The notes under the pieces were generated by a model. That model was given only the letters and a program-made list of their open reading frames with translations, ran no database searches and was not told the DNA's origin. Below are positions 2,825 to 59,226 of a stretch of DNA of 64,000 bases, in pieces. The DNA comes from Chiloscyllium plagiosum. Taxonomy: Eukaryota. The DNA is taken from assembly GCF_004010195.1 (NCBI RefSeq), contig NC_057721.1, forward strand, positions 79,324,286 to 79,388,285, in the 5' to 3' direction. Numbering within the stretch: the stretch's first letter is position 1; each line of letters opens with the position of its first letter. The position numbers were made by a program, and so were the translations under genes.

Positions 2825-2954
2825 AGTCTCCCAGGTTATATCCTAAATATCCATCCAATCCATTTTCCTTGAAAATCTTGCCAACTTCACATTTCTCAAA
2901 GATAACGGCACCCGTGGCAGTGAGCAGCAGACTGAGAGCAACAAATGTCTTCAT
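2825..2954 (-). CDS. c-type lysozyme family gene A, first coding exon (remaining exons not in window)
   Basis: Encodes MKTFVALSLLLTATGA|VIFEKCEVGKIFKENGLDGYLGYNLGD+T: signal peptide, C6 and the GLDGY motif. 130-nt phase-1 exon ends at a GTGAGT donor, same length and phase as genes B and C. Confidence 0.9.
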
Positions 2955-5034
2955 CGTCTGAGGCTAAAATATTCAGTTCCACTCACAATCTTCCCCAAAC
3001 TGGAGTCTGCATTACAAGAGGAGGAAGAAAAATTACTTTTTAAATTGTTAAATATCCCAGTGAGTTAACAATAACCAGAGGGTGGTTGTTACAAACAGAC
3101 TGTGATTGAGGTTCCCCATTTCATTCCGCTCCCACACCAGTAACCCCCCCAACTGTCACATTCCCGGGTGTGAGGGGATGGACTGGTTCCCCTCTTTCTC
3201 CACCCAGCCCCTCGGTTGGTTAGACACTTGTGGATGTCTTTCTCCCAAACCACATGAACCGATACCTTCAAAGGAACAATTTAAACAGGCTTTCTGGTAT
3301 TAGCCAGAAGTTCTGAGTTTTTTAATGCCTAAAAATAGGCAAATTAATAACACAATATACATACACATGGATTAGAAATTAGAGGCTATTCCAAAAACAC
3401 TACAATGTAAAAAGAACAAGATGTATTCCTGAACAGATTCAGAGTTGTACGCAAAGTGCAGACAGTTGAACGTTACAGGCGTTTCCGTGGAAATTACTGA
3501 TAGCCTTGGTGCTGCAAGTTGAACAGTCAGATTCACAATCCTCTGATTTACAACTTTGTGAAGATTCTGTAGTTCTGATTTCTTTTAACAGTGACTGAAT
3601 TCCAGTATTCAGGATCAGCAAAAATCCATTTATTGCTCTGTTTCTTTCTGTCAGGTTTGCAGTACTTGGAGAGATTGTCATCTTTACCTGTAACACAGGG
3701 GTCCTTCTCATTATTTGACTGTGATGTGTCTGACATAGTAGGGTTTGGTTGGTACATACAGGAATGTTCAGTCCCACAATGACACTGGGGGACTAGCAAG
3801 TGATGCTGGTCTGGACAGGTGTGCTCACACCTCATGAAAGATTATTTACAAAATCCTTTCTCCCATAGGCAACACAATCTGTGAATATAGTCTTGCAATT
3901 TTCAATGGACCCTGGTTGCAATCGCAGCAGTATGATGAAAATCTACAGACCCTCAGAGTCAGCAGGATCCCCCAAATTCTTGACCTTTCAATCACAACCC
4001 ACCAAAAGTGGAAGAGACTGCAGATCACACTTTGAACTCCTCTGTCATTTCAGAACCCACCAAAACGGACAGGAAGTAAGTGATCCATCATGGACCATGG
4101 TTAAGTCCTTACTGACTGACCCGGTAGAGCAATGGGAACCGCGGTTGCAAGTTTCACTGGAACGTTTGTCCCTCTGACTGTACACAGTCCCTCAGTACTG
4201 CACAGAGTTCACCCACCTGGATTATGGGCCCAAGCTGGGGGTGTGTGAATTGAGCTGGAACTGTAAGTGCCTCCCCCGATCTGGTTGCACTTGACCCTGG
4301 TCGGCTCATTCCACAAGGACACCTTTCCAGATACACAGAGTGGGAGAGACAGCTACCCACCTCACAGGGATGGAGTTGGAACACTCTTCACTCACGGCAC
4401 TGTATTCTGATCATGCAAAGTAATTACACTGTGAGATGTGGGTTTCTTTAAGCCACCTCCTGAAGCTGCATCGATTTACAGATTTCCTTTCCTAAGCTAT
4501 TGCCCAGTTACACATCGGAATAATTGTACAGACTTACTGTGTGTTAGAAGGAAACGGGCTGGGTGAACAGGCTGTCCCTCAGACCCCTCTGGCAAATAGA
4601 GACAGATATCCCCACCTTAAATCCAGTGGGCAGAATGAGATCACTGTCCTTTCTAATCCCATCCGCCCCTTCATAACTGAAAACAACATGTTCCTCTCTC
4701 ACTGCCAACAGGAGCTAATGTGACATTTCCAATTATTGAACTCTGGTTTTGGCAACTCTCCCCTTCCTGGAAGCTGGGGCTGAGAGACAGAAGGAGGGAC
4801 GGTGGATTGGGGTGTGTAAAGGCTGGGTGGGTTAATGAGCTGGAGACATATTCAACAGGACTCAGTGTCCAACAGTTTTTCAAAGCACCGAGTGAGACAT
4901 GGTGTCCATGCCCAATGTGGTCAACACCTTGTCATTAACCCCAATGTCCTGCTTGGGATAGAACATCATGTCCTTGCGCTAACAGCTTGATGTTTAAATA
5001 TTACAGCAGCACAAAATATCACTAACCAGTGATT

Positions 5035-5740: not shown

Positions 5741-8383
5741 CATAAAAAAGAAAGATTTACAAAGATGAGCAGGTTATAGAACTTGTCTGGGTGGATTTGT
5801 GAAGTAAAGAGGGATAGAGGTTATTAATGGCTACTGTCACAGCAGATAATGAGGCAGGATACACAGAAATCAATGAAGCTTATTGGGGAGAATATATAAT
5901 CAGAGATGTTAATTTTCACTCAGGCAATGGGAAGTCAAGCAGCATGAATTCCAGAGGCAAAATCTTGAGTTAATTCAAATCTGCTTTTTGGAACAATAAA
6001 GAAAACTTGAACAATTTTTGAACAAACCAGAAAGCTGGCCACAATTAATTTAATACAAATTACCTTTAAGTGATGAAGCACTGAACTAATAGTTACCATA
6101 CTATAATACTTTAATATTTATGACAGAAAAGAGTGATTCACAGAATAATGTTTAAAGTTTAGGTCAGACGGACATTGGAGGGATTTGGGTGAGGCAGGGT
6201 TTAACCACAAGTGATTCCACTTCACAGAATCATCCTGTGATCTCTGTTTATTTCAAAATGACAGGCTGGAATGTAGGGAATTGGGAAGATCTTCCATTAC
6301 TCTAGCAAAAGAAAGAGAGATACAGCAAAGACCTAGGAGTGAAAGTAATTTGAAACAAATCTGATAAATGGATGTTGCAAAGGGATAAATTTGGATCAAG
6401 CTGCTGATACGGTGACATTAGATCTGTTCAAGGTCTTCTTGTGTCAGTAGAGTTGAGGTCTTAAAGTCTTGAGTTTCGACTGAATGAATAATCTCCTGTT
6501 CCAATGTTTCTTTCCTTATCTTTCTGATAGCTAAGGAGTGGCAATGTGTTCTTTCCGAGAACAACAGATGGTACATTTCCTTGAGAAAGGGGAACACTAT
6601 TTCTTAAAAATAACTTTAACTCCGGAAATTCCTTTTCAAGTTAGAGTAAAAAGAAAACTACAAAACATACTTGAGCAAGATAAAGATCATGGTGTCACTT
6701 TAATATAGAGTTTTTCTTAACAAGGGGGTTGAGATTAAACTATAGCTCCTTGATTTATATGGAGTGCTTTGCAGAAGGGTTAAAGTGAAGACATTTACTT
6801 TAATTCCTTCATGTGCTATCACTAGGTTGCAGTGGAAACTTGCAGTTGATGGTGTTTCCACTTGTATGCCTTACTTGCTTTCCTCCCTGAGTTTCAAAGC
6901 TGTTGTCGCGAGAGCTTTTGTCAAAGTTATTTCAATGCCTCTTGTGAATAAGACACACTACTGCCACCATTCACAATCGATGAGGGAGTGAGTAGATAAG
7001 GTGATGATCGACATGCAAGTCAAACGGGGTGCTTGGTCCTGGATGGTGTCAAGCTTCTTGAGTATTGTCAGAGCTGTGCTCATCCAGATAAGTGCAGAAT
7101 ATTCCATCACATTCCTGCCACGTGTCTTGTAGAAGGTGGAAAGCCTTTGGAGAATCAGGAGGTGAGTTATGCACTGCAGAATTCCCAGCATCTGATACAT
7201 AAGGGCAAGTTGTCACATTGTCTATATTGACTGCTGGTCCATTAAATCTCAATTATTAAACTATTTCGCTTGTGTAAAAACCTCTCCAGTGATTCAACAC
7301 CTCCTCAACTCTGTAGTCTCCTCAAGACCAGGAACTGTGTGTTCCTCCAATTTCCTTCAGCACAACACTATTGGCCCTGCCTTCAGCTTACTATGCTCTA
7401 ATCTGAGTAATTTCCACTCCAAAGCTCAATGTCTCTCTATCACACTCAGCTCTCGCCCTTAAAATGCACCATAAAGACACATCTTTATACTTCTTACTAC
7501 TCATTCATGGATGTGAATGGCGAGATCCATTCTCTGCTTGCCTAGAGTCAATCTCATTGCTGTCAGATTTCCCTCTCTCGTGGAGACCAGTGAGCCCAGC
7601 AGCTTTCTAAACAACAGTTGATCGCAGTCAACATTGGGCCAACTCCTGTTAAAGTTTTGCGCAAATCAAACGTCACCATCTGTGATGCTGCGATTCAAAC
7701 CTGTCACTGGTACATTGGCCTCGGGTTACTGGATTACTAAGCCAATAATACAACCACCACGACACCATTACCTCCCCTTTTGTACAGTGATACAGCACGA
7801 AAACAGACCCTTTGGTTCAACCAGTCCATGCCGAACATAATCCCAAACCAAACAAGTCCCATTTGCCTGCTCCAGGTCCATATCCCTCCAAACTTTTCCT
7901 ATTCATGTGTCAAGATATTTTACTAAATTATAGGTGTTATGTAAATGCAGGTTGCTTTAGCAGCCAATTTGCCATGACGAGAAATATTTGATTCAGACAT
8001 AGTTCAGATGGTTGACTCTTGGAGAAGTGTATGATTTAACTTATTGTATAAAAACAAGGAATTTCCCATCGACCAAATAATCTTCTGAAAACTAAATGTT
8101 CACCTTCGAAGAAAGAAGGATTGTTGTGCTCCCTGGAAAAGGCTTTTCTTAAAAAAGTAATGTTCTTGGAAATCTCATCATCTTGATGAGTTGAAGCCAA
8201 AACTTATCGACTGTTCAGAGATTGGTTATGTTTTACAAGATTGTTTTGATACGTGTGTAACAATGGTGTAGTAAAGAGTAGGTGGGGGAGGGGCGGACAA
8301 CAGACTCCTACCCGATTACAAAGGGAATAACTCTAATTCATATTTCTAGTTCAATAACTGCTTCTTGTGCCATGATCAGGAAA

Positions 8384-8513
8384 ATGAAGACCTTTCTCAT
8401 TCTCAGTGTTCTGCTCACAGGGGCAAGGCCTTATGTCTATCAGAAATGTGAACTTGCTCAACTATTGCGCAGGAATGGTTTGGATGGATATCGTGGGTAC
8501 AGTCTGGAAAACT
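8384..8513 (+). CDS. lysozyme gene B exon 1 (signal peptide + helix A)
   Basis: ATG at 8384 (an in-frame upstream ATG also at 8372); donor GTGAGT at 8514. Confidence 0.92.
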
Positions 8514-9230: not shown

Positions 9231-9261
<31 letters not shown>

Positions 9262-12200: not shown

Positions 12201-15200
12201 ACCAATACCTTTGTGGACATAACTTTGTAATAATAATGGACCACAAATTCCTGCTGGGTCCACTTAAAAAGGACAAGGCAGTGCCACCCACAGATTCAGA
12301 CCAAATTCAGCAATGGGCTTTCATACTAATTGCATACAATTACAAGTTGGATCTCCATCCAGGAGGCCAAGTAGCGAAAGTGGATGCATTGAACTGCCTC
12401 CTGCTGCCAGATACACCCCTGATGGGGCAGGCACTGGAAGAGCTTTCCTGATAAAGTTTTTGACTGAAACGTTGATTTTCCTGCTCCTCGGACGCCGCCT
12501 GACCTGCTGTGTCTTTCCAGCACCACTCTAATCTCGACTCTAATCTCCAGCATCTGCAGTACCCACTTCTGCCTAGGCACTCAAAGAGTCTGTAATGGTT
12601 TTATATTTTCTGAACACACTTAAAGTCAGAGTCGTAGGGTCATGCAGCACAAAAACAGACCCACCGGTCCAACCAGTTCATACCAAACACAATCCCAAAC
12701 TAAATCATTCCCACCTGCCTGCTCCTGGCCTATATCCCTCCAAATCTTTCCTGTTCATGTACTTATCTAAGTGTCTTTTAAATGTTGTAATTGTACCAAC
12801 ATCCACCACTTCCTCAGGAAGTTCATTCCACACATGAACCACCCTCTGTGTAAAAGATTTGCCCTTCATGTCTTTTTAAAATTGTTCCCCTCTCACCTTA
12901 AAGTGAGTCCCCGAGTCTTGAAATCCCCCATGCTAGGGAAAAGACAACCACCATTAACTCTATCTACGCCTCTCATTATTTTATAAACCTCTATCAGGTC
13001 GCTTTCAACCTCCAACACTCCAATGAAAAATGTCCCAGCCAATCCAGCCTTTCTTTATAACTCAAACCTTCCATATCTATCAACGTTCTGATAAATCTCT
13101 TCTGAACGCTCTCTCTCATCACAGCTGACAATATCAGATTTTGGATGTAGAAAGATCCGGTCCTGGGAGAAGTGAAACAGCTGGTGGTGATGGGGGAAAC
13201 GAGAGGGCTGTCGCACCCAGAATTGAAACCTTTTTGGACACAGAGAAACCCGATCACAGAAGAAGATGGTATATTATTATGGGGAACAACAACGATTGTC
13301 CTGAGCAATGATCACTGCCAGATACTGGCTGAACTCCACCAGGGTCACCCAAGGGTTTCTAAAATGAAGGTATTGGCGAGAAGTTATGTCTGGTGACCAG
13401 GATTGGATGTCGACATAGCTATGTTGGTGGGGCGGCACCCAGAGGACGAAAATTACTGACAGCTCCTCCCCTACATTTTTTCGTACAGTTTGGAAACAGG
13501 CCCTTCGGCCCAACAAGTCCACACTGACCAACCCAGACCCATTCCCCTACCCTAAATTTACTCCTGACTAATGCACCTAACACTATGACCAATTTAGCAT
13601 GGCCAGTTCACCTGTCCTGCACATCTTTGTGTTTGTGAGAGGAAACAGGAGCACCCAGAAGAAACTCACACAGACACAGGGAGAATATGCAAATTCCACA
13701 CAGACAATCGCCCAAGGCGGGAATCAAACCTGGGTCCCTGGTGCTGTGAGGCAGCAGTGCTAACCACTGTGACACCGTGCTGCTCCATTCCTGGGAATGG
13801 CAGAGTAAACCCTGGACTCAGTTACACATCGACTACACGGGTCCTATCATAGGCTCAATGTTCTTAGCCATTGTGGACGCTGACTCAAAATGGCTGGAGA
13901 TCCATAGAATTCATTCACCAAATATGGGAACAATGACAGAAAAGCCATGAGCATCTTTTGCAATGCACGGACTCCTAGAAGTGTTGGTCAAATACAACGG
14001 TCCATCATTTACCAGCAGGTAATTTGAGAATTTCTGAAAGACAAATGGTATTTTGCATGTCAGGGTAGCTCCATGCCATCCATCATCCAGTGGTCTGGCA
14101 GAAAGTGCAGACCAAACTTTGAAGGCAGGCTGAAAGAAACTGCCTACAGTATCATTCGATACCAAACTGTCCTGCTAGCTGTTTGATTATAGGAAAACCC
14201 CTCATGCAACAACAGGGACAGCACCAGCAGAGTTGCCAACAGGGGAAGTCTGATCTTCCTGGACACAAGAGTCCACTAAAGCGAGAGACGCTGTTTACTT
14301 CAGGGAACAAAGTTTGGTGTAAGAACCACAGGAATGGCCCTGACTGGGTGAGGGGTATGGTTGCCGTGAGGTCAGGTTCAGTGACATAGAAAGTTCCACT
14401 CGGTGTGATAGTCCTGAAGAAGCACTGCAAACTCACAAACGGTGCGGGAGCTAAACCTGCTCAGCTCCTCGACAGCCTTTCGGACTGTTCCAGAACCTGT
14501 GGGTGCTCCCTCTCCATCAGGTGTTGAAAATACCTCGGAATCTGAGATGGACACAGCGGATGTCATCACCTCAATGCCTTTCCCGCCTGAAAAACAGAAT
14601 GAATTTCTTTTGAGATGCTCCAGTTGCAAGAGACGAGCTACTGTGTGTTACACACTGCCCATATCAGAGGCAGACCTGGAGGAACCTGAGCTGGTGCTAA
14701 AATGCCTCAGGAGGAACTACAAAAAGAAAAGAACCAGCCAATGTCCTCGGACTCAGAGAGAGAGGGATGTAGTAATTGTAATGAAGTCAGTCAGGTGGAC
14801 CTCATAGAAAATGAGTTCCGTGATTGGGGCTGTTCATCTGGTCCAATCAGGGAGCCCTGGCTCACAGATAAAAACAGGAGTGACAGAGGTTCTGCTCACT
14901 CTGAGAGCTGGCTCTGAGGGAGCTGGACCAGTGTCAAGGACTCTCCCTGTGTAAATAAAGGGTGATGTGGTGACTGGACACCAGCCTCTGTGGAATTATT
15001 TCAGTTATCCTTATGCCACCACCTCCCCTTGCACTTGAGGAAGGGGCATCAAAGGAAATACCGAACACAAGGCTGTGATCTGTTTGTTCTCATTTTAGGG
15101 ATTTGTCTGGTTCAATATGAAAGCAACTACAACACAAGAATAGTTGGACTTAACAAGAGGGCTGGAAGGACTTTATCATCAGATTACGGGATCTTTCAGA

Positions 15201-18200
15201 TCAACAGCGTCAGGTGGTGTGAAGATGGTCAGACACAGCACCCAAAGAGAAGGAAAGGATGTGGGAAGAGGTGCAATGGTAAGCAATTCATCACATCAGG
15301 ACAGGTCAGAAATTATCTCTTCCCTTAGGCTATGATTTTGGTGTACAGCAGTAATTTCTCAACTCCCATTTGTTAAGTGAAAGAATTAAATCATAAAAAT
15401 TCCAATTTAAGCGAAATAGAATACTGTGCAAGAATTAAAGAAAGCAAGTTAGTGCCTTAGAGGATGAGGCTGGGGAGCTAACAATGTGGGAGATTCTTGG
15501 AGCAGAGGGCACAGTCTCAGAATAAAGGGACACCAATTTCAGACTGATTTGAGGGGGGATTTCTCCTCTCAGAGGGTTGAGAGACTTTGGAACTCCTTGT
15601 CACAGAGAGCTGTGGGGGCAGAATCCTTGTGTATACTGAAGGCTGAGATGGAGAGATTCTTGATCAGTCGGGGAATCAATGGTTAAGGGGAAAGGGCAGG
15701 GAGGTGGATGTGAGGAGTGTTGGATGAGCCATGATCTTATTGAATAGCAGAAGGCTCAAGGGACTAAGTGGCCTACTCCTGCTCCTAATTCTCATGGTCT
15801 TTGACGCTTATATGGCAGACACAAATCAATATTCTGCCTCAGTTTCATGGTGGGAGATACTGAAACTATACCAATAGGAACGACAGATGCAGAGATTATA
15901 GAAAAAGAGGAACTTAAATCAATTGCTTTCACTAAGGAAAAGTACTGAGGAAACTATTGGGATGAAAAGCAGACAAACTCCTGTGTCCTGATGGTCTACA
16001 TAATCGGGTATTAAAGGAAGGGGCAGCAGAGACAGTGGATGCATTGTGGGCGCAGTGTATCTGAACTTCCAAAAGGCATCTGGTAAGATGTTGCAAGAAA
16101 GCTTAATACACAATTCTAGATTAGAGTGGTGCTGGTAAAGCACAGCAGTTCAGGCAGCCCTTGAAGGGCTTTTGCCCGAAACGTTGATTTTCCTACTCCT
16201 CGGATGTTGTGCTTTACCAGCACCACTCTAATCTAGAATCTGGTTTCCAACGTCTGCAGTCCTTGTTTTTACCTAGTTAATACACAAGGCAAGCATAGAA
16301 GATTGACTAACCAACAGAAAACAGAGTTGGGATAAATGGATATTTTTATAGAAACCAGTGGCCCAATGGTATTATCATTAGCCTACTAATCACATAAATC
16401 AGGTCGTGTTTTATGGAAACCACAAGACCAGGTACAAATCATGCCGTAGTAAATGGTGGGATTTGAATTCAATCAGAATTTAGCTGCTGTGCTTTCTCTC
16501 CCTTTCTGCAAGTTATTTATGTAAATTGTTAGCAGCAATAACTCCCATGAAACACCACTTGCTCCATCTTACCAACAAGAATGAGTCCCATTTTTGCTTA
16601 TTTTGTTTCCGATAAGCAAGTCAATCATCTATCTATGCCAATATATGACCCCCATCCCATGAACCTTTAGTTGTTGCACTAATCCTTGATGTGATACCTC
16701 AATAAGTACCTTGAGAGTCCATCCACAAATTTCCTTTTATCCACAGCACATGTTACTTCTTCAGAGGAGTTTAACAAGTTAGTTAAACGTGATTTCCCTT
16801 TCACAAGACCATGCTTGATACTGCCTGATTAGCTAGAATATTTCTATGTACTATAACGTCTTTAAAAATTTATTCTAACGTTTTCTCTGTAGCAGCTGTT
16901 AAGCTCTCTGGCCAGACTCCTGCTTCAGCAAACCTTCCCCCCACCCCCTTAACACTTTCTGATTGATATTGAATTTAATTCGTTCAATTAATTTAATAGG
17001 ATATTTTCTAAATCTTCACTAGAATGCACCTCTTCAAACAATGTCAGAATATTGGCATCACCATCCATGGCTCCATCTTCTCCCATCAGTGGGATGGACT
17101 TCAGAGATGCCACACAGTGCTATATCATTGAGAGGAGTTAGCCTGGAAATCCTCAACATTGATTGTAGACCTTCTAAAGTCTTATGGCTCCTGGTCAAAC
17201 ATGGGCAAGGAAACCTCACACTGATGCGTACTTACCACACCCCTTCAGCTGATGAACCAGAGCACCTACATGTTGACCAACAATTAGAAAATGCGCTTGT
17301 TATGGACTAGGCCAGACCCCCTCAAAACATTTACAGAAAGTAGCTCAGACCTTAAATTTGCTAATTGTTTTAAGCGGGTGTGACGTGGATATTCCAGGAC
17401 AAATGCAGCTGGTCAAACCACTTAGTTTTAAACAAAACAGAATTTATTTACAAGATTACCGAATGAAACACAAACAAAAGAGAAGAGAATACAGAATAAG
17501 CTAACCTATCCGAGAACCTTAAAGATTATCCCAACTTAAGGATGCCATTCCCAATACTTGCAACAACCCCCATAAACACCCCTTGGCACAAAAGGAAAAG
17601 ATCAAACAGGAGAAAAGTCAGAGACAGAGTACCAGCCTTTTGTCTAAGGCAGTATCTGTTAGCTATAATCAAACTGGCCCTAAAACCCTTCAGCCCCAGA
17701 CTTTTTGGAGTCTGTCTGAAAAAAAACCAAGGACAACATAACCTTGTTAAAGGAGCAACATCATCACACACAGAGAATAGGAAGGGTGCAGAATGTCCTC
17801 TGGGAGATGGACTCCACTGTCCATGACCAAGGCAGCACAACTGATTGAGTTGGCCAAGTCTTAAGAGATGTAGCTGCTGGAATAGGAAACCGACATGAGG
17901 GAAAAGCTGACTTGACCTCATCCAAATGCATCAGTGACAGACAAATGGGAACCTGGGGGGAAACAAGGGAAAAGAAAACCCTTTTCTAAATTTACGTAAT
18001 AGATTCAAAATAACCACCAGTATGAAAGATAAGGTGATCTCTGCTGGTCAGTTTGTGACAGATAACACTGCAAGCAATTCTCTTTACTGGACTGGTAGAG
18101 AAGTTTTATACCTTTGAAACTGTAATGCCCTAGTGAAATGGAGCTGATAAAACAAAATCTTATCTGGGATTAACTATTTAGTGAACTCTGGGATTTTGTT

Positions 18201-24200: not shown

Positions 24201-25134
24201 TTCTGCTGCTGGTTTCTGATAAAAAAGAAAATGAAAAAAGAGAAAAAAAAATAAACTAGGGGCACAAAAATGTAAGCACTACCACAGTTAGAAAGTAGTA
24301 TGGGGTAGAAAAAAATATACACATATAACCAGGAGACTTAGAGTCTCAAAAAAAAAAGAAAAAAGTATATAACCGGGGATTTAGAACCTCCTCAGGTCAG
24401 GGGTTTACTCTGTGCTGGCTGGGTCATTGGCAGTGTGTGCCTGCTGCTGTTAGATTCTGGTTTTTGGGGGAAACAAAAAAATCCAGAGGCACAACTCATG
24501 GTCGAGGGACATAGGTTAATCCCAGCTTGGTAGCTGGTGAACTTAAATTCAATTAATGAATCAGGAATTTTAAAACTGTTCTCAGTGATGGTGACCATGA
24601 AAATATCATCAGTTAAAAATGTATCTGGTTCACTGAAGTCCTTTAGGGAAGGAAATCTGCCATTCTTATCCGATCTGTTCAAAATGTGACTCCAGACCCA
24701 CATCAATGCAGGTAACTCTTCACTGCCCTCTGGAGTGACCTAGCAAGCCATGCTGAGAGTATGCAGTAAATTCTGACCTGGGCAGTGATCCCCCATTTCC
24801 TCTGAAAGAACAAAGAAGAGGAGACAACGGACAGATGTTGTACACACTGATAACTTCTGAGACCCAGGAAGAAATCAGAGCCAAGTACAGTTGGTGCTGG
24901 ATACTCTGAGCAGGTCCAGCAGCATCTGTGGAGAGAAGTAAACAGAGTTAACATTTGATGTGAATGTTCCCTGGGGAAAAAAAAACATGAACATTTGTTG
25001 ATTCTTCCATTGGCTGTACCTGGAACACCCTCTTGTTTAACACTATTTATGCTTTTTTCTTTTGCAGGTATAGCTGGAAGAAAAAATGTCAGAGTCGAAA
25101 CCTTGGCAATTTTCTGGATGACTGTAAAATATAA
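8384..25134 (+). CDS. lyz: c-type lysozyme gene B, join(8384..8513,15099..15278,18311..18386,25068..25134), 150 aa
   Basis: Spliced ORF of 453 nt: [150 protein letters not shown]. Has 8 Cys, E35 and D52 equivalents, all GT-AG introns, and phases 1/1/2 as in vertebrate lysozyme c. The symbol is family-level; orthology is untested. Confidence 0.93.
8808..9140 (+). mobile_element. tRNA-derived HE1-like SINE
   Basis: ggcacggtggctcagtggttagcactgctgcctc A/B-box head and shared core. Confidence 0.85.
11025..11264. mobile_element. fold-back PLE family A element
   Basis: Inverted arms; 14-bp TSD atg(c/t)ttgtggaatg at 11011-11024 and 11265-11278. Confidence 0.8.
11084..11111 (-). ncRNA. minimal hammerhead ribozyme motif (PLE family A)
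   Basis: Reverse complement: CTGAAGA-A-GGGC ttat GCCC-GAAA-CG-TC. Confidence 0.65.
12625..13110 (-). mobile_element. CR1-like LINE 3' fragment nested in the Gypsy element
   Basis: [26 protein letters not shown]-terminus plus 3' UTR. Confidence 0.75.
13480..13780 (-). mobile_element. tRNA-derived HE1-like SINE
   Basis: Same family as 8808, reverse orientation. Confidence 0.85.
14768..15003 (+). repeat. 3' LTR of the Gypsy element
   Basis: Polypurine tract agagagagaggga at 14755-14767, then TG...CA ends; CCAAT, TATA-like motif and AATAAA (14954) inside. Confidence 0.7.
15099..15278 (+). CDS. lysozyme gene B exon 2 (catalytic exon)
   Basis: Acceptor cattttag; WICLVQYES...[15 protein letters not shown]...C...C; donor GTAAGC at 15279. 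Confidence 0.95.
17298..17768. repeat. solo LTR related to the LTR at 55213
   Basis: Starts tgttatggact...agacc.ctcaaaac, shares ...gaatgaaacacaaa with the 55213 LTR, and interrupts a LINE fragment. Confidence 0.6.
18311..18386 (+). CDS. lysozyme gene B exon 3
   Basis: Acceptor tttcttgtag; [26 protein letters not shown]; donor GTATGT. Confidence 0.93.
20605..21169 (+). mobile_element. PLE family A element with GIY-YIG C-terminal fragment
   Basis: [14 protein letters not shown]...[24 protein letters not shown]; inverted terminal arms; perfect 12-bp TSD tacgtatcatca (20593-20604 and 21170-21181). Confidence 0.85.
21044..21071 (+). ncRNA. minimal hammerhead ribozyme motif (PLE family A), sense in gene B intron 3
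   Basis: CTGAAGA-A-GGGC ttat GCCC-GAAA-CG-TC; GUC cleavage triplet; stem I only about 2 bp. Confidence 0.65.
21900..22208 (+). mobile_element. tRNA-derived HE1-like SINE
   Basis: Full head, core and tail. Confidence 0.85.
25068..25134 (+). CDS. lysozyme gene B exon 4
   Basis: Acceptor ttttcttttgcag; (W)[24 protein letters not shown] supplies the last two Cys. Confidence 0.92.
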
Positions 25135-25950: not shown

Positions 25951-25956
25951 AATAAA
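25951..25956 (+). promoter_or_regulatory. candidate polyadenylation signal of gene B
   Basis: First canonical AATAAA I found after the stop at 25134. Confidence 0.35.
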
Positions 25957-41589: not shown

Positions 41590-41719
41590 ATGAGGGCACT
41601 CCTACTTCTCAGTCTCCTGCTTATGTCAATAGGTGCCAAGGTCTATGAGAAATGCGAATTTGCTCGGATTTTGAAGGATAAAGGATTAGATGGATTTCAC
41701 AGGCACAGATTGGCGGACT
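41590..41719 (+). CDS. lysozyme-like gene C exon 1 (absent from the ORF track)
   Basis: Signal peptide ...SIGA|KVYEKCE, GLDGF motif; donor GTGAGT at 41720. Confidence 0.92.
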
Positions 41720-44700: not shown

Positions 44701-47700
44701 GATGAGCAGGAGAGTTAATTTCTCACCTTGAACCAACATAATTGAAAGAACAAAGATGATCTGGCCATTAAAATTGCCGTTTGTGGGAGGTTGTGGTTTG
44801 CAATTTGATTACTAAGTTTGCAGCTCCTAAAAACTGAATCAGTCCAAATGTTACAAGACTTGGAAAGTATGCAGGCCTGGGCTGACAAGTGGCAAGCAAC
44901 ATTTGTGCAAGGCAATGACATTCTCAACTACAAGACATCTAACATATAACCACTGTTCCTTGACAGTCAATGGTGTTACCATCACTGTATCCCACACTAT
45001 TTATTTCATGGGGGTTACCATTAACTCGAAACTAAATTGGATTTGCCATATACCGTATATATTCAAGTAATAGTCGAGCTCATGTAAAAGTCAACCCCCT
45101 ATTTTTGGCCAAATAACCTGGGATTTTCCATTTATCTCATGTAAAAGTTGACCCCAGTTCTTCACAGATAACAGATCAACGTTTATGAGTCAGTGTGCAG
45201 GCCGCCACGTTCCGTTCCAGTTTTCCAATCTGCTGGTTGTTCTGCTCTGCTCCCGGTCTTCCAGTCCTCTGGCTGTTAGTTCCACTCCAGGTGTTTGGAA
45301 TTACCATAATTCATTTCTTTCAGCCCCTCAAAAGTAGTATCCATGTAATAGTTGACCCCCAAAATTTTACCTTAAAAAGTAGTCATAAAAATATGACTAT
45401 TACTCGAGTATGTACAGTAAATACAGGAGCTAAAGGTTCAGGTCAGACATTAGGAATATTGCAGCAAGAACTCACCTCCTGACTCACCAAATTCTGTCCA
45501 CCTGATGTCCACAAGACAAACATCAGAAGTGTGATAGAATATTCCCCACTTGCCTGGATGGGTGCAGCTCCAACAACACTCAAGAAGCTTGACACCATCC
45601 AGGACAAAGCAGCCCACTTCATTTACACCAACCCTAACATCAATCACCTCTATCACCAATGTACAGTAGCAGCATCTAGACGATCAGTAATATGAATACA
45701 AAATTAGGCAGGAAGTGGAGAAATTAGATTGGGGGAGTCTGAGGATAAATCTTTCAAAGGCCAGTTGATCAGAGTTCAGGACCAGCACATTCCTGTGAGG
45801 TCTCACAGGTGAGGCCTTCGAAGACTTGAGAAAGGCCAATGTTGGTTGGTTGTTTGTGAAGGACAAGAGGGATAACCCAGGTAATTTTAGGCTGGTGAGC
45901 CTTACATCGTGGTAGGCAAATTATTGGAGAAGACTATTAGGCTCTAGGATTACTCGCATTTGGGAAAGAATGGGCTATACAGAAATAGTCAGCATTTGTG
46001 CAAGGGTGGTCTTGTCTCAGAAACGGGATAGAGTTTTTCGAGGAAGTGACAAAGATGATTGCTGAGGATAGGGATGTCTATATGGACTTTACTAAAGCAT
46101 TTGACAAGGTTTGTCATGGTAGTCTGGTCTAGTGGATTAAATCACTTGGGATCCACATTGATTTGGTAAATTGGATAAAAAAATTGGCTTGGTCACAGGA
46201 GACAGAGGATAGTTGTGAAGGAGTGTTGTTTTGACTGGAGCTCTGTGATTACTAGTGTTATGCAAGGTTCAGAGCTGGGACCTCTGCTGATTGTAAAATG
46301 TATAAATGGTTTCAGTGAAAATGTAAGTGGTCTCATTAGTAAGTTCGTAGCTGACACAAACATTGATGGAGTTGTGGATAGTGAGGACGATCACCAAAGG
46401 ATACAGTAGGATATTGATCAATTGGCAAGTTGGGTATAGAAATGGCAAACAGGGTTTACTCTAGACAAGTATGTGGTGATGCATTTTGGCAGATCAAATC
46501 AATGGAAAATGTACAGTAAATGACAGGACCCTGAGGAGCATTGATACACTGAGGGATCTTGGGGTACAAGTTCAAAGCTCCCTGATAGTAATAACACAAC
46601 TAGATAAGGTGGTAAGGAAGGCACATGGTATGTTGCCTTCATTGGTTATGGCATTGAATATAAAAGTGATATTACAGCTGGATTGCCACATTTTGGAGTA
46701 TGGAGTGCAATTCTGGTTGCAACACTACAGGAAGGATGTGGAGGCTTTGGAGAGGGTGGGAAAGAGGTTTGCCAGGAGGTTGCCTGGATTGGAGTGTATC
46801 AGATATAAAGGGAGGATGGACAAATCTGGATTGTTTTCACTAGAGTGTCAGAGTCTGAGGGGTGACCTGATAGAGAAGTATATAAAATTATGAGAGGCAA
46901 GGGTAGGGTGGATCGTCAGAGACCGGAAATGTCAAATATTAGGAGGATTACGTTTGAAGTGAGGGGGGGAAAGATTAAAGAAAATGTGAGAGGCAGGATT
47001 TTTATGCAGAGGATGGTAGGTTTCTGGAATGCACTGCCAGGGGAGTCAGTAGAAGCAGAGACGATAGCCACATTTAAGAGACATTCAGACAGACATAGGT
47101 AGGGATTTGAGGGGTACAGACCATGTGCAGGCATGTGAGATTAGTTTACAATAATGTTAAGGTCAGCACAGACATGATGGGCCAAAGGGCCTGATCTTGT
47201 GCTGTATTGGTGAGGTCAGTGCAGAACAGATAGAGAGAGAGAGAGAGGGGAAGAGAGAGAGAGAAAGAGAGAGAGAGGGAAACCCACACTGCTCCCCGAC
47301 ACAGCAGTTACTGTCTTTGCTGTTTAATTCATGTATCACTGGACACCGAACTGCATCTGGGAAAATGAACAAACAGTGAAATTCACAACTGAGCATGAGG
47401 AACCTGTTTGGGAGAGGTCAGAGCACAGAGACAGATAAGTGAATAGATTTAAATGTGGCTTTGGGGCCTTGCTCTCAGTCAGCAGTAATGAATATATTGT
47501 GTTCTTTCTTGATTATATGTTTTATTGAGATATGTCTCTTGATTGAACATAAAATATAAGCCATAAGTATTATGTTAGCCTGGAGCAGTGTTTTGTAGAG
47601 GAATAAGACAGTGCTATTTTCTGGGTCTGTCACTTGGAAGTACAAATGGCCTTTCGTAGAGTGATATGCTCTTCTTGTCAGATGTGGCAGTTTAGGGAGA

Positions 47701-50700
47701 GTTTACGTGTTACTGAGGATTATATTTGCAATAAATGCTGTTGGTTGCGAATCCTATCAGATTGAATGGAATAGTTGGAGCAACAGTTTGAGGCAATGGG
47801 GAACTTACAAGAGCAAGGGGCTGTGATGGATGGCAATTATAGGAGGGAGAAAAGTCGCAGACACAGTCATATAGATGGGTTAACTCCAGGAAAGGTAAGA
47901 GAGGTAGGTAGATAGATCAGGGATCTTCTGTGGTTACCCCATTTCAAACAGGTATGCTTTGGAAAATGTAGGGGTAATGGATTGTCAGTGGAATGTAGCA
48001 CGAACAGCCAAGTTTCTGGTATTGAGACTGGTTTTAATGCAAAGGTGGGGGGTGTGACCCAGGGAGATGGTGAGGAAAGAGATCAATCTGAGATTGGTAT
48101 AGTTGAGACGGGTTCCAAGAGATCAATTGTATTAGGGGATTCTGTAGTCAGAGGTACAGACAGACGTTTCTGTGGCCAGCAGCGAAAAATCAGAATGGTG
48201 TGTTGCTTCCCTGGTGCCAGGATCAAGGATGTCTCAGAGAGGGTGCAGAATGTTCTCACGGGGGAAAGGGACCAGCAGGAGGTCATTGTCCACATTGGAA
48301 CCAACAGCATAGGAAGGGAAAAGGTTGAGATTCTGAAGCCAGGGAGATAGTGAGGAAAGAGATCAATCTGAGACTGGTACAGTTGAGAACAGAAGCGAGT
48401 CAAACAGTCAGGGCAGGCAGGGACAAGGTAGGACTAATAAATTAAACTGCATTTACTTCAATATAAGGGGCCGAACAGGGAAGGCAGATGAATTGAGGGC
48501 ATGGTTAGGAACTTGGGACTGGGATATCATAGCAATTACAGAAACATGGCTCAGGGATGGGCAGGACTGGCAGCTTAATGTTCCAGGATACAAATGTTAC
48601 AGGAAGGACATAAAGGAAGGCAAGAGAGGAGGGGAAGTGGCGTTTTTGATAAGGGAGAGCATTACAGCTGGACTGAGGGAGGATATTTTCCTGGAAATAC
48701 ATCCAGGGAAGTTATTTGGGTGGAACTGAGAAATAAGAAAGAGATGATCACCTTATTGGGATTGTATTATAGACCCCCTAATAGTCAGTGGGAATTGAGA
48801 AACAAATTTGTGAGGAGATCTCAGTTATCTGTAAGAATAATAGAGTGGTTATGGTAGGGGATTTTAACTTTCCAAACATTGACAGGGACAGCCGTAGTGT
48901 TAAGGGTTTTGATGGAGAGGAATTTGTTAAGTGTGCACGAGGAAATTTTCTGATTCAGTCTGTGGATGTACCTATGAGAGAAGATGCAAAACTTGGGAAA
49001 TAAGGCAGGGCAGGCGACTGAGGTGTCAGTGGGGGAGCATTTGGGACCAGTGATCATAATTCTATTAGTTTTAAAAGAGTGATGAAAAAAGATAGACCGG
49101 ATATAAAAGTTAAAGTTCTAAATTGGGGGAAGGCTAGTTTTGATGGTAATAGGCAAGAACTTTCAAAAGCTGATTGGGGCAGATGTGTGCAGGTAAAGGG
49201 TCGGCTGGAAAATGGGAAGTCTTCAGAAATGAAATAACGAGAATCTAGAGAAAGTATATTCCTGTTAGGGTGAAAGGAAAGGCTGGTAGGTATAGAGAAT
49301 ACTGCATGTTGAAAGAAATTAAGGGTTTGGTTAAGAAAAAGAAGGAATCATATGTCAGGTATAGACAGGAGAGATCAAGTATATCCTTAGATGAGTATAA
49401 AGGCAGTAGGAGTATACTTAAGAGGTAAATCAGGAGGGCAAAACGGGGACATGATATAGCTTTGGTAAATCAGGACAATCCAAAGGATTTTTACAAATAC
49501 ATTAAGGACAAAAGGGTAACTAGGGAGAAAATAGAACCCCTCAAAATCAGCAAGGCGGCCTTTGTGTGGAGCTGCAGAAAATGGGGGAGATACTAAATGA
49601 GTATTTTGCATCAGTATTTACTGTGGAAAAGGATATGGAAGATTAGACTGTAGGGAAATAGATGGTGATATCTTGAAAAATGTCCATATTACAGAGAAGG
49701 AAGTGCTGGATGTCTTGAAAAACATAAAAGTGGATAAATCCCCAGGACCTGATCAGGTGTACCCAAGAACTCTGTGGGAAGCTAGAGAAGTGATTGCTGG
49801 GCCCCTTGCTAAGATATTTATATCATCGATAGTCACAGGTGAGGTGCCAGAAGACTGGAGGTTGGCTAACGTGATGCCACTGTTGAAGAAGGGTGGTAAG
49901 GACAAGCCAGGGAACTACAGACCAATAAGCCTGACCTCTGTGGTGGGCAACTGGTTGGAGGGAATCCTGAGGGACAGGATGTATATGTATTTGGAAAGGC
50001 AAGGACTGATTAGGGATAGTCAATATGGCTTTGTGAGTGGGAAATCATGTCTCACAAACTTGATTGAGTTTTTTGAGGAAGTAACAAAGAGGATTGATGA
50101 GGGATGACACCAAAATTGGAGGTGTAGTGGACAGCGAAGAGGGTTACCTCAGATTACAACAGGATCTGGACCAGATGGGCCAATGGGCTGAGAAGTGGCA
50201 GATGGAATTTAATTTCAATAAATGCAAGATGCTGTATTTTGGGAAAGCAAACCTTAGCAGGACTTATACACTTAATGGTAAGGTCCTAGGGAGTGTTGCT
50301 GAACAAAGAGACCTTGGAGTGCAGGTTCAGAGCTCCTTGAAAGTAGAGTCACAGGTCGATAGGATAGTGAAGAAGGTGTTTGGGATGCTTTTCTTTATTG
50401 GTCAGAGCATTGAGTACGGGAGTTGCAGCTGTACAGGACGTTGGTTAGGCCGCTGTTGGAATATTGCGTGCAATTCTGGTCTCCTTCCTATTGGAAAGAT
50501 GTTGTGAAACTTGAAAGGGTTCAGAAAAGCTTTGCAAGGACGTTGCCAGGGTTGGAGGATTTGAGCTACAGGGAGAGGCTAAACAGGCTGGGGCTGTTTT
50601 CCCTGGAGCATCGGAGGCTGATGGGTGACCTTATAGAGGCTTATAAAATCATGAGGGGCATGGATAGGGTAAATTGATAAAGTCTTTCCCTGGGGTGGGG

Positions 50701-53700
50701 GAGTCCAGAACTAGGAGGCATAGGTTTAGGGTGAGAGGGGAAAGATATAAAAGAGACCAAATAGGCAACTTTTTCACACAGAGGATGGTGCGTGTATGGA
50801 ATGAGCTGCCAGATGAACTGGTGGAGGCTAGTACAATTGCAACATTTAAAAGGCACCTCGATGGGTATATGAATAGGAAGAGTTTGGAGGGATATGGGCT
50901 GGGTACTGGCAGGTGGGACTAGATTTGTTTGGTATGTCTGGTATGCATGGACAAGATGGACCGAAGGGTCTGTTTCCATGCTGTACATCTGTATGACTCT
51001 GTGACTCTATGACTGTTCAATGTTCCAAGTTCATTGTTCTATGTTCTCAGATTCACTGCAGAAATTCGCCAAAGACCTTTAGATAGCATTTACCAAACTC
51101 ATGACCATGATCATCTAGAAAGACAATGGCAGCGGATACATGGGAACACCATTCCCTGCAAGCTCCCCTCCAAGTCATTCACTATCCTGACTTGGAAATA
51201 TATCGCTGTTCCTTCAGCATCACTCGGTCAAAATCCTGGAACTTACATTTTGGGACTACATACAGCACATGGATTGTGGTGATTTGAGAAGGCAGCTCAC
51301 CACCAGCCTCTCAATGACATAAGAATGGACAATAAATGCTGGTCCTGCCAGGATTGCCCATGTCCCACAAGTGAATAAAACAATTTCCTGCAATGCAAAA
51401 CTGGCACATTTCAAAAATTACTTGATTGGCTGTAAAACAGTTTGAGAGGCCCTGAAAATGTAAAAGGTGCTTTATGAATGTTTCAGTGTTTCAGTTTCCC
51501 GGCCTACAGTGTACGATGGCATGGAGCCTGAAGAGTAGGTTGGGGAAGTGGGCACCTGCCTGGCAGGAACATGGGTCAAGAGGCTCAAAACCAATATTTA
51601 TTCTTCATCCCTAATCATTCTCAAGAAGGTCATGTGAAGGTCCAGGGGAGCAGGGACACCCACAATGTCATTAGAGAGAGAACGTCTCTCCCAGGACGTT
51701 GACCAAACAACACTAGGGGAATGGCAATATATTTGTATGTCAGGATGACGAGTGGTTTGGGGGGGGGGGGTTGGTGCTAGATTTCAAGTGGTGGCATCCC
51801 CATGTATCTGCTGCCCTTGTCCTTCTAGCTAAGGCAGAAGCTGTCAAAGGAGGATTGGTAAGCTGTTGCAGTGAACTTTGTGAATGATACGCCACACTAA
51901 TCGTGGAACAAATGAATATGTGAGAAAGCCCACCACTGAATTAATCTCAGCAACTATGGTGAATGTCAATGTAAGAGTCAAAGCATCTTCGCAGCAGTCA
52001 CCCTGTCAAGAGCTGCAGGTTGTCAGAAAGATCACCTCTCCTTCTTCTGAACGCCAGTGAGTACAATGCCAATGGAAAGCAAGGTACCTTGGATGTTGGA
52101 GACCTGAAATAAAAACAGAAAGCATTGGAGAAACTTAGCAGGTCTGGCAGTATCAATAGAGTTTCTACCAATGTGGAAAATGTAGTGCTCCTCCTTCAAC
52201 TTGCTTTGAGACCTGTAAGAGAAATATGAGCATGAAAGCAAAGCGGCCTATTGGAATGGGGATTTGTTCTCAGAAGAGCTGATCTATTTTCTGCTATTAA
52301 CACCTACTCTTTACCTATATCACTTCATGACTGCTATTATTCCCTTGCTTTTCGCTCCTTGACCATCTATTTTACTTGCTGTTGCTTCTGTCCCTCATCC
52401 CCATCCACAGCATGCCCAGTTTGATTTGAGGAATGCCCAATTCAGAATCCTCTGAACTTGGCTTTTCCTTCTGTGCTATAATCATTAACACCTTCTCTCT
52501 TGCTTTCCTTCCCGATCAAAATAACTTTGGAGCATATTCACATGAGACACTCTGTGAGATTCCTTCCTGTTTGGAATCCTTATCAAGTCGTTCACCTCAC
52601 TTAATTTCTTCTCGATTTGATGAGGTCCACTTAACCTTGTTTTTGAAAGCTCTCCTGTTACTGGAAGTAACACCAATACTTCAGCTTCAAATGCAAAATT
52701 GTGAATTTTTGATTTCTTATCCACTTCCTGTTTCATTGTATACTTTGATACTTTTAAATGCTGTCTAGCCAATTCTCCAGCTCTATTTAGTCATTCTCTA
52801 AAATTTGACAAATACTTCAAATGGGTGATCTCTGAATTCTGACTTATTAATTTCTCCTTAATCAATTTTAACGGTCCTCTTACTTAGTGCCCCAAAATTA
52901 AATCAAATGGACTGAATTTGGTCGATTCATTCAGTGCATCTCTGATCGCAAAAAGTACAAATGTCTGGATAATCCTGACCATAAGCCCTCAACATTGCCT
53001 TTAATGCTTGATGCCATCTCTCTAGTGCTCCCTGCAATTCTGGATGGTATGCGGCAGATTTGAATTGTTTTATTCCCAAGTTATCTATGAATAGTTTGGA
53101 TGTGAAGTTTGATCCTTGATCTGACTGGATTTCTATTGGCAGGCCGTATCGAGTAAAAAATCTAAGTGGTTCTTTGACAACCTTTTTAGCTGTAATGTTG
53201 TGTAATGGGATTGCCTCTGGAAATCTAGTCGACACATCCATTATTGTTAATAAATACTTATTCCCACTTTTTGTTTGAGGTAGGGGAACTACGCAATCAA
53301 TCAAGAATCTGTGAAAGATTCCTCAAATGCTGGAATAGGTATTAAAGGTGCAGGTTTTATTACTGCCTGTGGTTTTCCGATTAGCTGACATGCATGACAT
53401 GTCTGGCAAAATTCAACTACACCTTGCAGTAATTCAATGACAACTTGTACTGTTGAACAGTAAAAATGCATTTGCATTTTAGCCTGTGTTTTCACCCTGA
53501 AACGACTTCCAAGTGATAGCTTGGAAGCTATCAGCATCACTCTCAGCACCTCCTTTTGAGACCCTACTGGCAAAACAATTTGATGAATCTCTGTCCATTT
53601 ATTATCTGCTTAGATATTTGATGGTTTCCATTTCCTCATTAAGACATCATTTGTTCAGTAATAACACACAGGAATGCATTAACTTTCTTTCTCTGAAGAT

Positions 53701-56700: not shown

Positions 56701-59226
56701 TCTCTTTCCGTTGACACAGTGGGGCAAGAAAAACTTGCACTTTTTAATGATGTGAACTCTATTTGAGTCTATCAATTGAGTTGTTTGCTGGGATTGTGTG
56801 GCCTACCCTAAATACCCCCTAACTTCAGCTTGGCTCTCTCTAATGGCACAATGGTTTTGTTGTAAAAGAGCAACTAAAAACTAAAGCTAAATTTATTCAT
56901 TTCTTATTGTAGGTTTGCTGGATGATGATATCACTGATGATATTCAATGTGTAAAGTCTGTGGTTGTTACTCAGCTTGGAATGGATATCTGGTATGTTTT
57001 GAGCCCTGCTTTATTATTTAGTTTCTCGCTGCCTCTGTGAACCATGATGACAATTTAATATGACAGAAACCAGACTTAAAGGGAATGCAAGGTGAAGAGC
57101 TAGGGTTCACAGTACAATACATCATCATGGTATGAAGAAAGTCGATTGAATCAGAGAAATGGTGAAATTGAAAGTCAGGGTTGCCTGTTTAGAAGGTGGG
57201 AACTGGACAAGGTGATGGGGATCTGAGACTTTTAGGATATTTAGGATATTTTTGTGGTAGAACATGCCTGAGCTATGAAGGATGTCATTGCCTACCATGA
57301 GTTCTCTCAGGACACCCATGGAACTTGCAGCCAATGTCGTCAATGTTGGTATTCGGCCAACTTTCTGCAGCTGGTGACACCTCAGGCTTTTCTCATGGTC
57401 ATACCAGAGGGTAGAGATTTGAACAGCCGTTCCTGAGAACATGCACCAGCAAGTTCAATGCTTGCCTCACTTTCTTAAAAAGGTAGAAGTTTGTTTTCTC
57501 AAAAGGGAGATCCACAGTGCAGCCATTTCTGAGGCAGCGTGCCCTTATTTCAATTGGGTTGAATGACTTGATGGGATTGGCTCAGCTTTTTGCTGTGAAT
57601 ATTGTCAGCACATACATAAAGATTATTTGTGATTTTACCCTGCCATCAGATTCACCTTTTAGGTCACTCTGTGGTTAGCACTACTGCCTCACTGCGCCAG
57701 GGACCCAGGTTCGATTCTGGCCTTGGGTAACTGTCTGTGTGGAGTTTGCACATTCTCCCAGTGGCTGTGTGGGTTTCCTCCCATAGTCCAAAGATGCGTA
57801 ATTTAGGTGGATTAGAGCTATAGAGATATACAGAAGGGAAACAGACACTTTGGTCCAACTCATCTATGACAACCAGAAACCCTAAATCAGTCAAGTCCCA
57901 TTTGCCAGCATTTGGCCCATGTCCCTCCAAACCCTTCCTATTCATATACCCATCCAGATGCCTTTTAAATGTTGTAGTTGTATCAGACTCCATCACTTCC
58001 TCTGGCAGTACTTTCCAGACATGCACCACCTTCTGTGTGAAAAAGTTACCCCATAGGTCCCTCTTTCCCCTCTCACCGGAAACCTACACCCTCTAGTTTT
58101 GGGCTCCCCTACCCCAAGGAAAAGCCCTTGTCCATTTACTGTATCTCTGCCACTCTACAAGGTCACTCCTCAGTCTAAATTGCCCCGTAGTTTGTAGAGA
58201 TCTGTGGGGCAAGTGACCAGCTATGGTAAATGTGGGATTATAGAGATGAGATGGTGCTGGGTGGGGTGCTCTTCAGAGAGTCAGTGTAGACTGAATGGGC
58301 TGAAGGGCCTCTTTCTGCACTGTAGGGACACTATGAATCCTGGTGGGCCTCAGTGGTGTAAACATAACAGAGATTTGAAGTGACAGCCCCAGTAGAACCA
58401 GGATTCTGCACCATTTGGCAGGGAGGTAAAAAAACAATTGACTGGGGAAGGTTGAATCTGGACTTCACTTTAATACCATGCTGTTTACAAACCATAAGGT
58501 ATAGGAGTAAAAATTAGGTCATTTGGCCCATTGAGTCTAATCTGACATTCAGTCATGACTGATAAGTTTCACAACCCAATTCTCACATATGTTTCCTTGT
58601 AACCTTTGATCCCAGTTGATACTCAAGAACCTATCTATCTCTGTTTTAAATATACTCAATGACCTGGCCTCCACCGCCTTCTGTGGCAGTGAATTCCACA
58701 GATTCACCACTCTCTGGCTGAAGAAGATTCTCCTCATCTCCGTTCTAAAGGGTCTTCCCTTTACTCTAAGGCTGTGGCCTCCAGTCTTAGGGGGTTTCTC
58801 CTGCTAATGGAAATATCTTCCCAAACCCCATTCCATCCAGGCCTTTCAGCACTCTGTAAGTTTCAATTATATCCCCTCTCAGCCTTCTAAACTCTATCAA
58901 GTATAGACCCAGAGTCCTCAAACATTCCTCATATGTTCAGCCTTCATTCTCAGGAGTCTCCTTTGGACTCGCTCCAGGACCAGTGCATCTTTCCTGAGAT
59001 ATGGGGCCCACAATTACTCACAATATTCTAAATGTGAGACCCAAAGGGCTGAATGACCTATTTCTGGACTAGAATGGCATATAGCTGAGTGGAATGAATG
59101 GGACTCTTCTTGTTCAAAGTTCCTGCTTTTTCCAGCTTTAACATTGTTTTCCATTGCAGGTCTGGCTGGAAGAAGAAGTGCATGGGGCAAGATCTCAGTC
59201 ATCTTCTGGATAGTTGCAGAATGTGA
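41590..59226 (+). CDS. calcium-binding lysozyme/alpha-lactalbumin-like gene C, join(41590..41719,44299..44472,56913..56991,59160..59226), 149 aa
   Basis: Spliced ORF of 450 nt: [149 protein letters not shown]. Has 8 Cys, canonical splice sites and phases, and no stops or frameshifts. Confidence 0.93.
42339..42373 (+). ncRNA. minimal hammerhead ribozyme motif (PLE family B variant), sense in gene C intron 1
   Basis: CAC-CTGACGA-A-GGAGC agt GCTCC-GAAA-GT-TT-GTG. Confidence 0.55.
44299..44472 (+). CDS. lysozyme-like gene C exon 2
   Basis: Acceptor aattttag; [13 protein letters not shown]...[15 protein letters not shown]...C...C; donor GTAAGT at 44473. Confidence 0.95.
45053..45417. mobile_element. 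Tc1/mariner-pogo type MITE
   Basis: About 23-bp terminal inverted repeats C(C/T)GTA(T/C)ATA(T/C)TC(A/G)AGTAATAGTC, with a TA duplication on both sides. Confidence 0.75.
45685..47210 (+). mobile_element. CR1-like LINE, decayed RT half
   Basis: YMDF.KAFDKV, QGS.LGP, KFVADT and C-terminal motifs. Confidence 0.85.
47210..51015 (+). mobile_element. near-full-length decayed CR1-like LINE (ORF1 esterase + ORF2 APE/RT)
   Basis: ORF1 SGNH esterase motifs (VLGDS...[10 protein letters not shown]...VHIGTN); APE endonuclease ([16 protein letters not shown]); RT ([16 protein letters not shown]); (tgactc)n-like tail. Frameshifts and an internal RT deletion at about 50101. Confidence 0.9.
52430..55857 (-). 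mobile_element. decayed Gmr1-like Ty3/Gypsy element (gag-PR-IN, RT missing) in gene C intron 2
   Basis: On the - strand: LTR 55857-55213; PBS TGGGGGCTC (tRNA-Pro type) at 55209-55201; gag with CFHC knuckle; protease end (VLGND); integrase Zn finger (CQTCHACQ) and core (IDCV.PLP...[16 protein letters not shown]...SDQGSNF). Confidence 0.85.
55870..56290 (-). mobile_element. CR1-like LINE fragment
   Basis: Reverse complement contains the LEYC.QFW.P.Y..D..ALE RT C-terminal motif. Confidence 0.65.
56913..56991 (+). CDS. lysozyme-like gene C exon 3 (Ca2+-binding loop)
   Basis: Acceptor ttcttattgtag; [27 protein letters not shown]; 79 nt; donor GTATGT. Confidence 0.93.
57663..58335 (+). mobile_element. 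HE1-like SINE interrupted by an antisense CR1 3' end (about 57820-58175)
   Basis: SINE head and core, then a reversed LINE tail, then the SINE resumes. Confidence 0.75.
59160..59226 (+). CDS. lysozyme-like gene C exon 4
   Basis: Acceptor ttttccattgcag; (W)[24 protein letters not shown]; 67 nt, as in gene B. Confidence 0.92.

Follow-up and report, generated by a model that had tools for sequence, protein, structure and literature searches.

A c-type lysozyme cluster in the bamboo shark Chiloscyllium plagiosum and a conserved shark clade that lacks Asp52

Conventional c-type lysozymes (LYZ, GH22) cleave peptidoglycan with Glu35 and Asp52, positions given in hen lysozyme numbering. What follows on their relatives comes from individual passages of the sources cited. 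The lysozymes that bind calcium (Lysc1, 'milk isozyme') still have Asp52 and lyse bacteria (PMC3141428). In alpha-lactalbumin (LALBA), Phe31 and His32 belong to the patch that binds beta-1,4-galactosyltransferase (PMC7565966). Among the sperm lysozyme-like proteins (SPACA3/SLLP1, LYZL4, SPACA5), mammalian LYZL4 has Glu35 but not the Asp, and reportedly does not lyse bacteria (PMC5104373). As for cartilaginous fishes, an active c-type lysozyme is known from the nurse shark (Hinds Vaughan and Smith 2013, as cited in the review PMC6795676), and g-type lysozyme was not found in elephant shark according to the same review. Here, we compare with these systems a cluster of c-type lysozyme genes in a window of 64,000 nucleotides of the bamboo shark Chiloscyllium plagiosum (NC_057721.1, 79,324,286-79,388,285, forward strand; all coordinates below are positions in this window).

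The window holds three c-type lysozyme genes. Gene A, on the minus strand, is represented by its coding exon 1 alone, while B and C, on the plus strand, each have four exons with open frames. At least three neighbouring paralogs had been claimed in an earlier note on this DNA, and all three were indeed present and matched C. plagiosum RefSeq proteins, which bear only the automatic name 'lysozyme C-like'. B looks like an enzyme. C and, by its RefSeq model, A lack Asp52 and carry a full calcium loop of the alpha-lactalbumin type. Our best explanation, with a probability of about 55%, is that C, and probably A, would represent an old subfamily of shark lysozyme-fold proteins, secreted and stabilised by calcium, that bind and do not cut.

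Gene C encodes 149 aa. Its coding exon 1 (41590-41719, 130 nt) matches the RefSeq protein P0005 (XP_043556137.1). Exon 2 (44299-44472, 174 nt) carries the Glu35 codon at 44319-44321 and an Asn52 codon at 44382-44384, and exon 3 (56913-56991, 79 nt) contains the full calcium loop (56915-56941) and the codon for Ile107 (56987-56989). The coding part of exon 4 ends with the stop codon (59160-59226), and an AATAAA signal lies at 59525. The spliced product is identical to P0005 except that the RefSeq model has an exon 2 longer by 13 residues. Besides Glu35 and Asn52, C has Tyr46, Thr101, Ile107, Gln57, Trp63 and Trp108, and Trp62 is replaced. All four loop residues, Asp82, 84, 87 and 88, are present in C as well as in A and match the alpha-lactalbumin motif. 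With 16 K/R against 17 D/E and an isoelectric point (pI) of 6.5, C was near neutral and carried the D52N change, as the earlier note had said.

These features are conserved. Orthologs of C were identified in eight records from eight species (P0001-P0007, P0216) of three galeomorph orders, order names here and below being those to which we take the records to belong. Glu35 and Asn52 occurred in 8/8, and Tyr46 (6/6), Thr101 (5/5) and Ile107 (5/5) were fixed in the scorable rows of the site table. Identity to the bamboo shark protein, given as C/B, was 92/92% in whale shark, 80/80% in basking shark, 79/78% in Mustelus and 75/75% in catshark, three of the four C values resting on partial models. 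Because this conservation equals that of B, C is not decaying, and the pseudogenisation that the earlier note had raised was not seen in C. The alignment-based fold of the basking-shark ortholog P0004 reached a predicted local distance difference test (pLDDT) score of 92 and a template-modelling (TM) score of 0.95 to human lysozyme; it was used in place of a single-sequence fold that gave pLDDT 40.

Some details of C concern its annotation and reads. In the RefSeq models of both Chiloscyllium species, exon 2 does not stop at a canonical GTAAGT donor but runs on for 13 codons (44473-44511), and the whale shark and epaulette shark models also read into the intron after exon 2. The extension reflects either faulty annotation or the use of a second donor. 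Sequencing reads were compared with C alone. Two runs behaved as DNA (X1 and X4), and X4 carried a synonymous change in exon 2 at 44402. Of two RNA runs of unstated tissue, X5 (about 2% read) left the bins of exons 1-3 empty and yielded repeat-derived reads alone, and X6 (about 6% read) gave nothing, results that are weightless either way. LINE-like and SINE-like high-copy repeats fill much of the 12.4 kb intron 2 of C (45500-51400) and of the region 3' of the gene (59800-62400).

Coding exon 1 of gene A (2954-2825, minus strand), which encodes the signal peptide and helix A, matches the N-terminal part of P0009 (XP_043556135.1) at 100% identity. This RefSeq model is 150 aa long, has Glu35 and Lys52, and also keeps Gln57, Trp63 and Trp108. 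It retains 29 of 43 family-conserved columns, against a background identity of 20%. An Atlas search with A returned generic lysozyme clusters only. Exons 2-4 of A were not found in the window by tblastn with 21 homologs and a six-frame profile search of the 64 kb, and one weak match to A at 5780-5910 (E 0.047) was judged to be due to chance. That A has a full-length RefSeq model shows that the cluster extends beyond the left edge of the window, as had been anticipated. Intron 1 of A contains a gap of Ns (1757-1878) lying between inverted near-copies, 5-327 versus 2202-1879 (97%) and 659-817 versus 1756-1598 (97%), which look like a scaffolding artefact.

Gene B encodes 150 aa and, once spliced, is identical to the C. 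plagiosum protein P0008 (XP_043556136.1). Its coding exon 1 (8384-8513, 130 nt) is followed by exon 2 (15099-15278, 180 nt), with the codons for Glu35 (15119-15121) and Asp52 (15182-15184), by exon 3 (18311-18386, 76 nt) and by the coding part of exon 4 with the stop (25068-25134); AATAAA is found at 25951. B also has Asn46, Ala107 and Trp108, with Arg at 62; the Asp101 column is deleted. In its calcium loop, positions 82 and 84 are Asn, and Asp87 and Asp88 are kept. The charge reported for B, 22 K/R versus 13 D/E with both catalytic residues, proved right (pI 9.3), and pI ranged from 8.7 to 9.6 in 9/9 B members examined. Orthologs of B occur in carpet, mackerel, ground, bullhead, cow and saw sharks, in skates and in stingrays. 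Applying the established lysozyme mechanism, B would be a secreted cationic muramidase that cuts peptidoglycan via Glu35/Asp52, helped by its positive charge. A basic insertion follows the WCEDG motif in B (15185-15278), and Trp62 and Asp101 are lost in all B orthologs scored; the cleft may be altered despite both catalytic residues.

Turning to what the genes share, eight cysteines are present in B, in C and in the RefSeq model of A. Exon 2 of B and of C scored 48.7 and 49.8 bits with Pfam PF00062 (E ~1e-12; cut-off 27 bits), and the family was also found on the full-length model of A. All introns of B and C are GT-AG with phases 1, 1 and 2. The note's common intron phases thus hold for B and C, and A can be checked for the phase of intron 1 alone. 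The 130-nt first coding exons that it called identical agree in length but not in sequence, with 81-86 of 130 nt (62-66%) and 18-21 of 43 aa in common. Exon 3 also differs in length, 76 nt in B versus 79 nt in C. The mature chains of B and C share 58 of 135 columns (43%), close to the 40% estimated before. A and B are head to head with start codons 5,430 bases apart, in agreement with the 5.4 kb given earlier. A pyrimidine tract with AG lies 34-77 bases 5' of each ATG (8349, plus strand, for B; 41512, plus strand, for C; 3007, minus strand, for A), which suggests an upstream first exon before each, and the B model of catshark is extended at its N-terminus by a stretch that matches the frame upstream of the ATG of B. 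A and B may in fact have promoters closer than 5.4 kb, or a shared one. The searches used for A revealed no fourth lysozyme gene or remnant in the window, and no non-lysozyme gene was recognised within it.

Two further paralogs lack Asp52, P0038 of basking shark (Asn52) and P0201 of catshark (Leu52), so that position 52 is N, N, L and K in the four paralog types. P0038 also keeps Glu35, Gln57, Trp63 and Trp108. In 5/5 full-length members of this Asp52-less group, pI was 5.0-6.4. The main tree (76 rows, 130 columns, LG+G4), built without isoforms, near-duplicates and multi-domain matches and with 11 tails cut, grouped A, C, P0038 and P0201 with support of 100/99 and placed B among other shark and ray enzymes; its backbone was unsupported. 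A 37-row subset gave the same clade at 99/99. Under a mixture model with 28 cleft and hairpin columns removed, C, P0038 and P0201 stayed together (99/97) and joined the B/D/ray group (93/92).

Orthology with known subfamilies was assessed by approximately unbiased (AU) tests, in which the labels of unnamed representatives are ours, presumed from subfamily motifs; the SPACA3-like row, itself unnamed, was labelled by its Thr35/Asn52 pattern. One-to-one orthology, which the earlier note had listed as a way in which its proposal would fall, was rejected for B with bony-vertebrate LYZ (p 0.0003), for B with cat milk lysozyme (p 0.04) and for C with the SPACA3-like row (p 0.003), but not for alpha-lactalbumin. 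With the one LALBA row, p was 0.41 for A/C, 0.16 for C and 0.34 for A, and it was 0.44 for the C clade when cleft columns were left out. The grouping of A/C with the SPACA3-like row had p 0.13. A labelling of P0248 as LYZL6-like was wrong: its Glu35/Gly52/Arg60 matches LYZL4, and LYZL6 is not knowingly among the tree rows.

The spacing from residue 35 to 52 was 21 in 48 of the 55 chondrichthyan records that could be parsed, out of a redundant set of 58 in which one unnamed record was placed by similarity. Of the 91 named records from bony vertebrates, 86 had a spacing of 16-18, and the five exceptions are apparent mis-parses. This longer spacing in cartilaginous-fish lysozymes supports a lineage-specific radiation. 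The old chondrichthyan expansion proposed before stands as to old, divergent paralogs, B being found in sharks and rays and C in three shark orders. The label is too wide for the Asp52-less clade, which was found in galeomorph sharks only; two chimaera records were neither B nor C. The clade was not found in squalomorph sharks, Heterodontus, rays or chimaera among the matches listed (the best 120 of 455 and the best 150 of 1,491), a sampling that does not establish absence. Basking shark has five lysozyme paralogs and catshark four, each set on one chromosome-sized contig, and neighbouring accession numbers suggest that they are adjacent.

How does the locus compare with the described systems? 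Like LYZ, these genes have four coding exons, a signal peptide, eight cysteines and the same fold, as judged from the C ortholog model. B resembles LYZ further in Glu35/Asp52, Asn46, Ala107, Trp108 and basic pI, and differs in a hairpin longer by 3 residues, in Arg at 62 and in the lack of Asp101, whereas C and A are acidic and lack Asp52. The Asp-Asp pair that ends the loop of calcium-binding lysozymes is common to A, B and C, but these lysozymes have the Asp52 that C and A lack. The nurse shark enzyme, likewise a shark c-type lysozyme, may correspond to any of the paralogs. With alpha-lactalbumin, C shares the full calcium loop, acidic character, loss of Asp52 and a large residue at 107, Ile where LALBA has Tyr; in contrast to it, C has Glu35 but not the Phe31/His32/Trp118 patch. 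Positions 31/32 are Asp and Ile in C and Asp and Asn in A, and neither protein has a Trp at what we take to be the equivalent of Trp118, so that neither carries the combination Phe31/His32/Gln117/Trp118. The sperm lysozyme-like proteins resemble C in their non-catalytic residue 52, which is Asn in SPACA3 and Gly, with Glu35, in LYZL4. However, mammalian SPACA3/SLLP1 has Glu35 replaced where C keeps it, and the calcium loop present in C is absent from the SPACA3-like and LYZL4-like rows.

We picture the history as follows. A tandem c-type lysozyme cluster would have expanded within cartilaginous fishes, and C, probably with A, would belong to an old galeomorph-shark clade that kept the fold, the signal peptide, the eight cysteines, Glu35, Trp63, Trp108 and the full calcium loop. 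This clade would have lost Asp52, changed its cleft and turned acidic. Since C has neither the nucleophile nor Asn46, carries a bulky residue at 107 and lacks a cationic charge, hydrolysis and membrane attack are unlikely; going by residues and charge, the muramidase activity of C and A is most likely weak or absent, and they would not kill by cationic action. C is held as tightly as B, and therefore something presumably binds its surface. C and A are thus probably secreted, calcium-stabilised binders, whose partner would be a protein or a GlcNAc glycan and whose expression would be confined to some secretory tissue, and the division of labour that the earlier note saw among the paralogs would take this form.

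Several observations weigh against this proposal. Glu35 was kept in every clade member scored, which fits a residual catalytic role. The place of A depended on the model, and A was left unplaced in the mixture-model tree without the 28 columns, although holding it inside the clade gave a likelihood 2.5 log units higher (p 0.62). Lys52 of A is read from a RefSeq model that spans the assembly gap in intron 1, and this model alone links exon 1 to the exon with Lys52; A occurred in one species only among the matches listed. Monophyly of all cartilaginous-fish rows was no more than not rejected (AU p 0.24). Finally, 7/8 RefSeq records of C depart from the four-exon structure, two of them with the 13-residue extension, and the C mRNA is predicted. 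Such mis-spliced or incomplete models may hint at restricted expression.

A possible though less probable interpretation is that C and A are still glycosidases, of low rate or altered specificity. Glu35 would then be their sole catalytic residue, helped by the substrate or by an activated water, and their targets might be chitin or host glycans. The retention of Glu35, Gln57, Trp63 and Trp108 in C, A and P0038 argues for it, and the D52N mutant of hen lysozyme retains a few percent of activity. A single catalytic Glu also serves goose-type lysozyme and the phage AP3 endolysin (passage in PMC5674055). Yet position 52 tolerates N, K and L, positions 46, 62, 101 and 107 are altered as well, Ile107 sits in the cleft, and no replacement acid was identified, model coordinates being outside that search. 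A or C might instead be a decaying or silent duplicate, and the irregular C models, together with the long branch of A and its single species, could be read this way. We consider this very improbable given the open frame of C, its canonical splice sites and its B-like conservation, and given the cysteines and family-conserved columns that A keeps.

The likeness to alpha-lactalbumin and sperm lysozyme-like genes could also reflect descent, the Asp52-less clade being the shark ortholog or sister of LALBA, SPACA3 or LYZL4 from the jawed-vertebrate ancestor. The AU tests did not reject this, with p 0.16-0.44 for the LALBA groupings and 0.13 for A/C with the SPACA3-like row, and the acidic charge, full loop and large residue 107 are shared with LALBA, as Asn52 is with SPACA3. 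Nonetheless, we find such descent doubtful: C has the longer cartilaginous-fish hairpin and joined the B/D/ray paralogs under the mixture model, LALBA is one long branch that shifted between trees, C is nearer to rat LYZ (48% identity) than to opossum LALBA (40%), and C with the SPACA3-like row was rejected. Should the clade be a true sister of LALBA, a non-enzymatic calcium-binding branch would predate the split between sharks and bony vertebrates. Speculatively, the clade could be the shark counterpart of alpha-lactalbumin, as a true sister lineage or as a parallel invention with a regulatory or nutritive role in reproductive-tract secretions. That C acts as alpha-lactalbumin itself does, binding beta-1,4-galactosyltransferase and changing its acceptor, would agree with the loop, the charge and the altered cleft; we regard this lactose-synthase role as hardly credible, because the patch residues are absent from C and A.

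A shark lysozyme cluster or Asp52-less shark clade was not described in the literature searched, which comprised listings and abstract openings, most subscription papers and the supplements of PMC11979771 and PMC9207270 being beyond its scope. By term search, lysozyme goes unmentioned in the main text of the paper on the bamboo shark genome (PMC7677710) and in those of PMC11979771 and PMC10707392. The passages of PMC3141428 call the origin of lactalbumin and lysozyme-like genes an open question, and mention neither 'shark' nor 'cartilaginous'. Cluster and clade are thus apparently undescribed and probably new in print. Loss of catalysis has been repeated among c-type lysozymes, so its kind is not new; what is new is a conserved shark clade that pairs loss of Asp52 with a full calcium loop. 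It would offer a separate case, or an early relative, of the enzyme-to-binder route, in a species kept in the laboratory. The label 'lysozyme C-like' spans at least five paralog groups in shark genomes, which bears on shark immune expression data.

Outside the window, two more chondrichthyan lysozyme clades with Glu35/Asp52 were present in sharks and rays (P0037, P0041 and P0046; P0187 and P0266). Asp52 was lost separately outside the A/C clade, to Val in a long-branch B-related sevengill paralog (P0200, P0284, Heptranchias), and Gly stood at 52 in a low-quality chimaera model (P0049, Callorhinchus). Many unnamed proteins (P0137-P0186) contained 3-10 tandem c-type lysozyme domains and reached about 2,350 aa.

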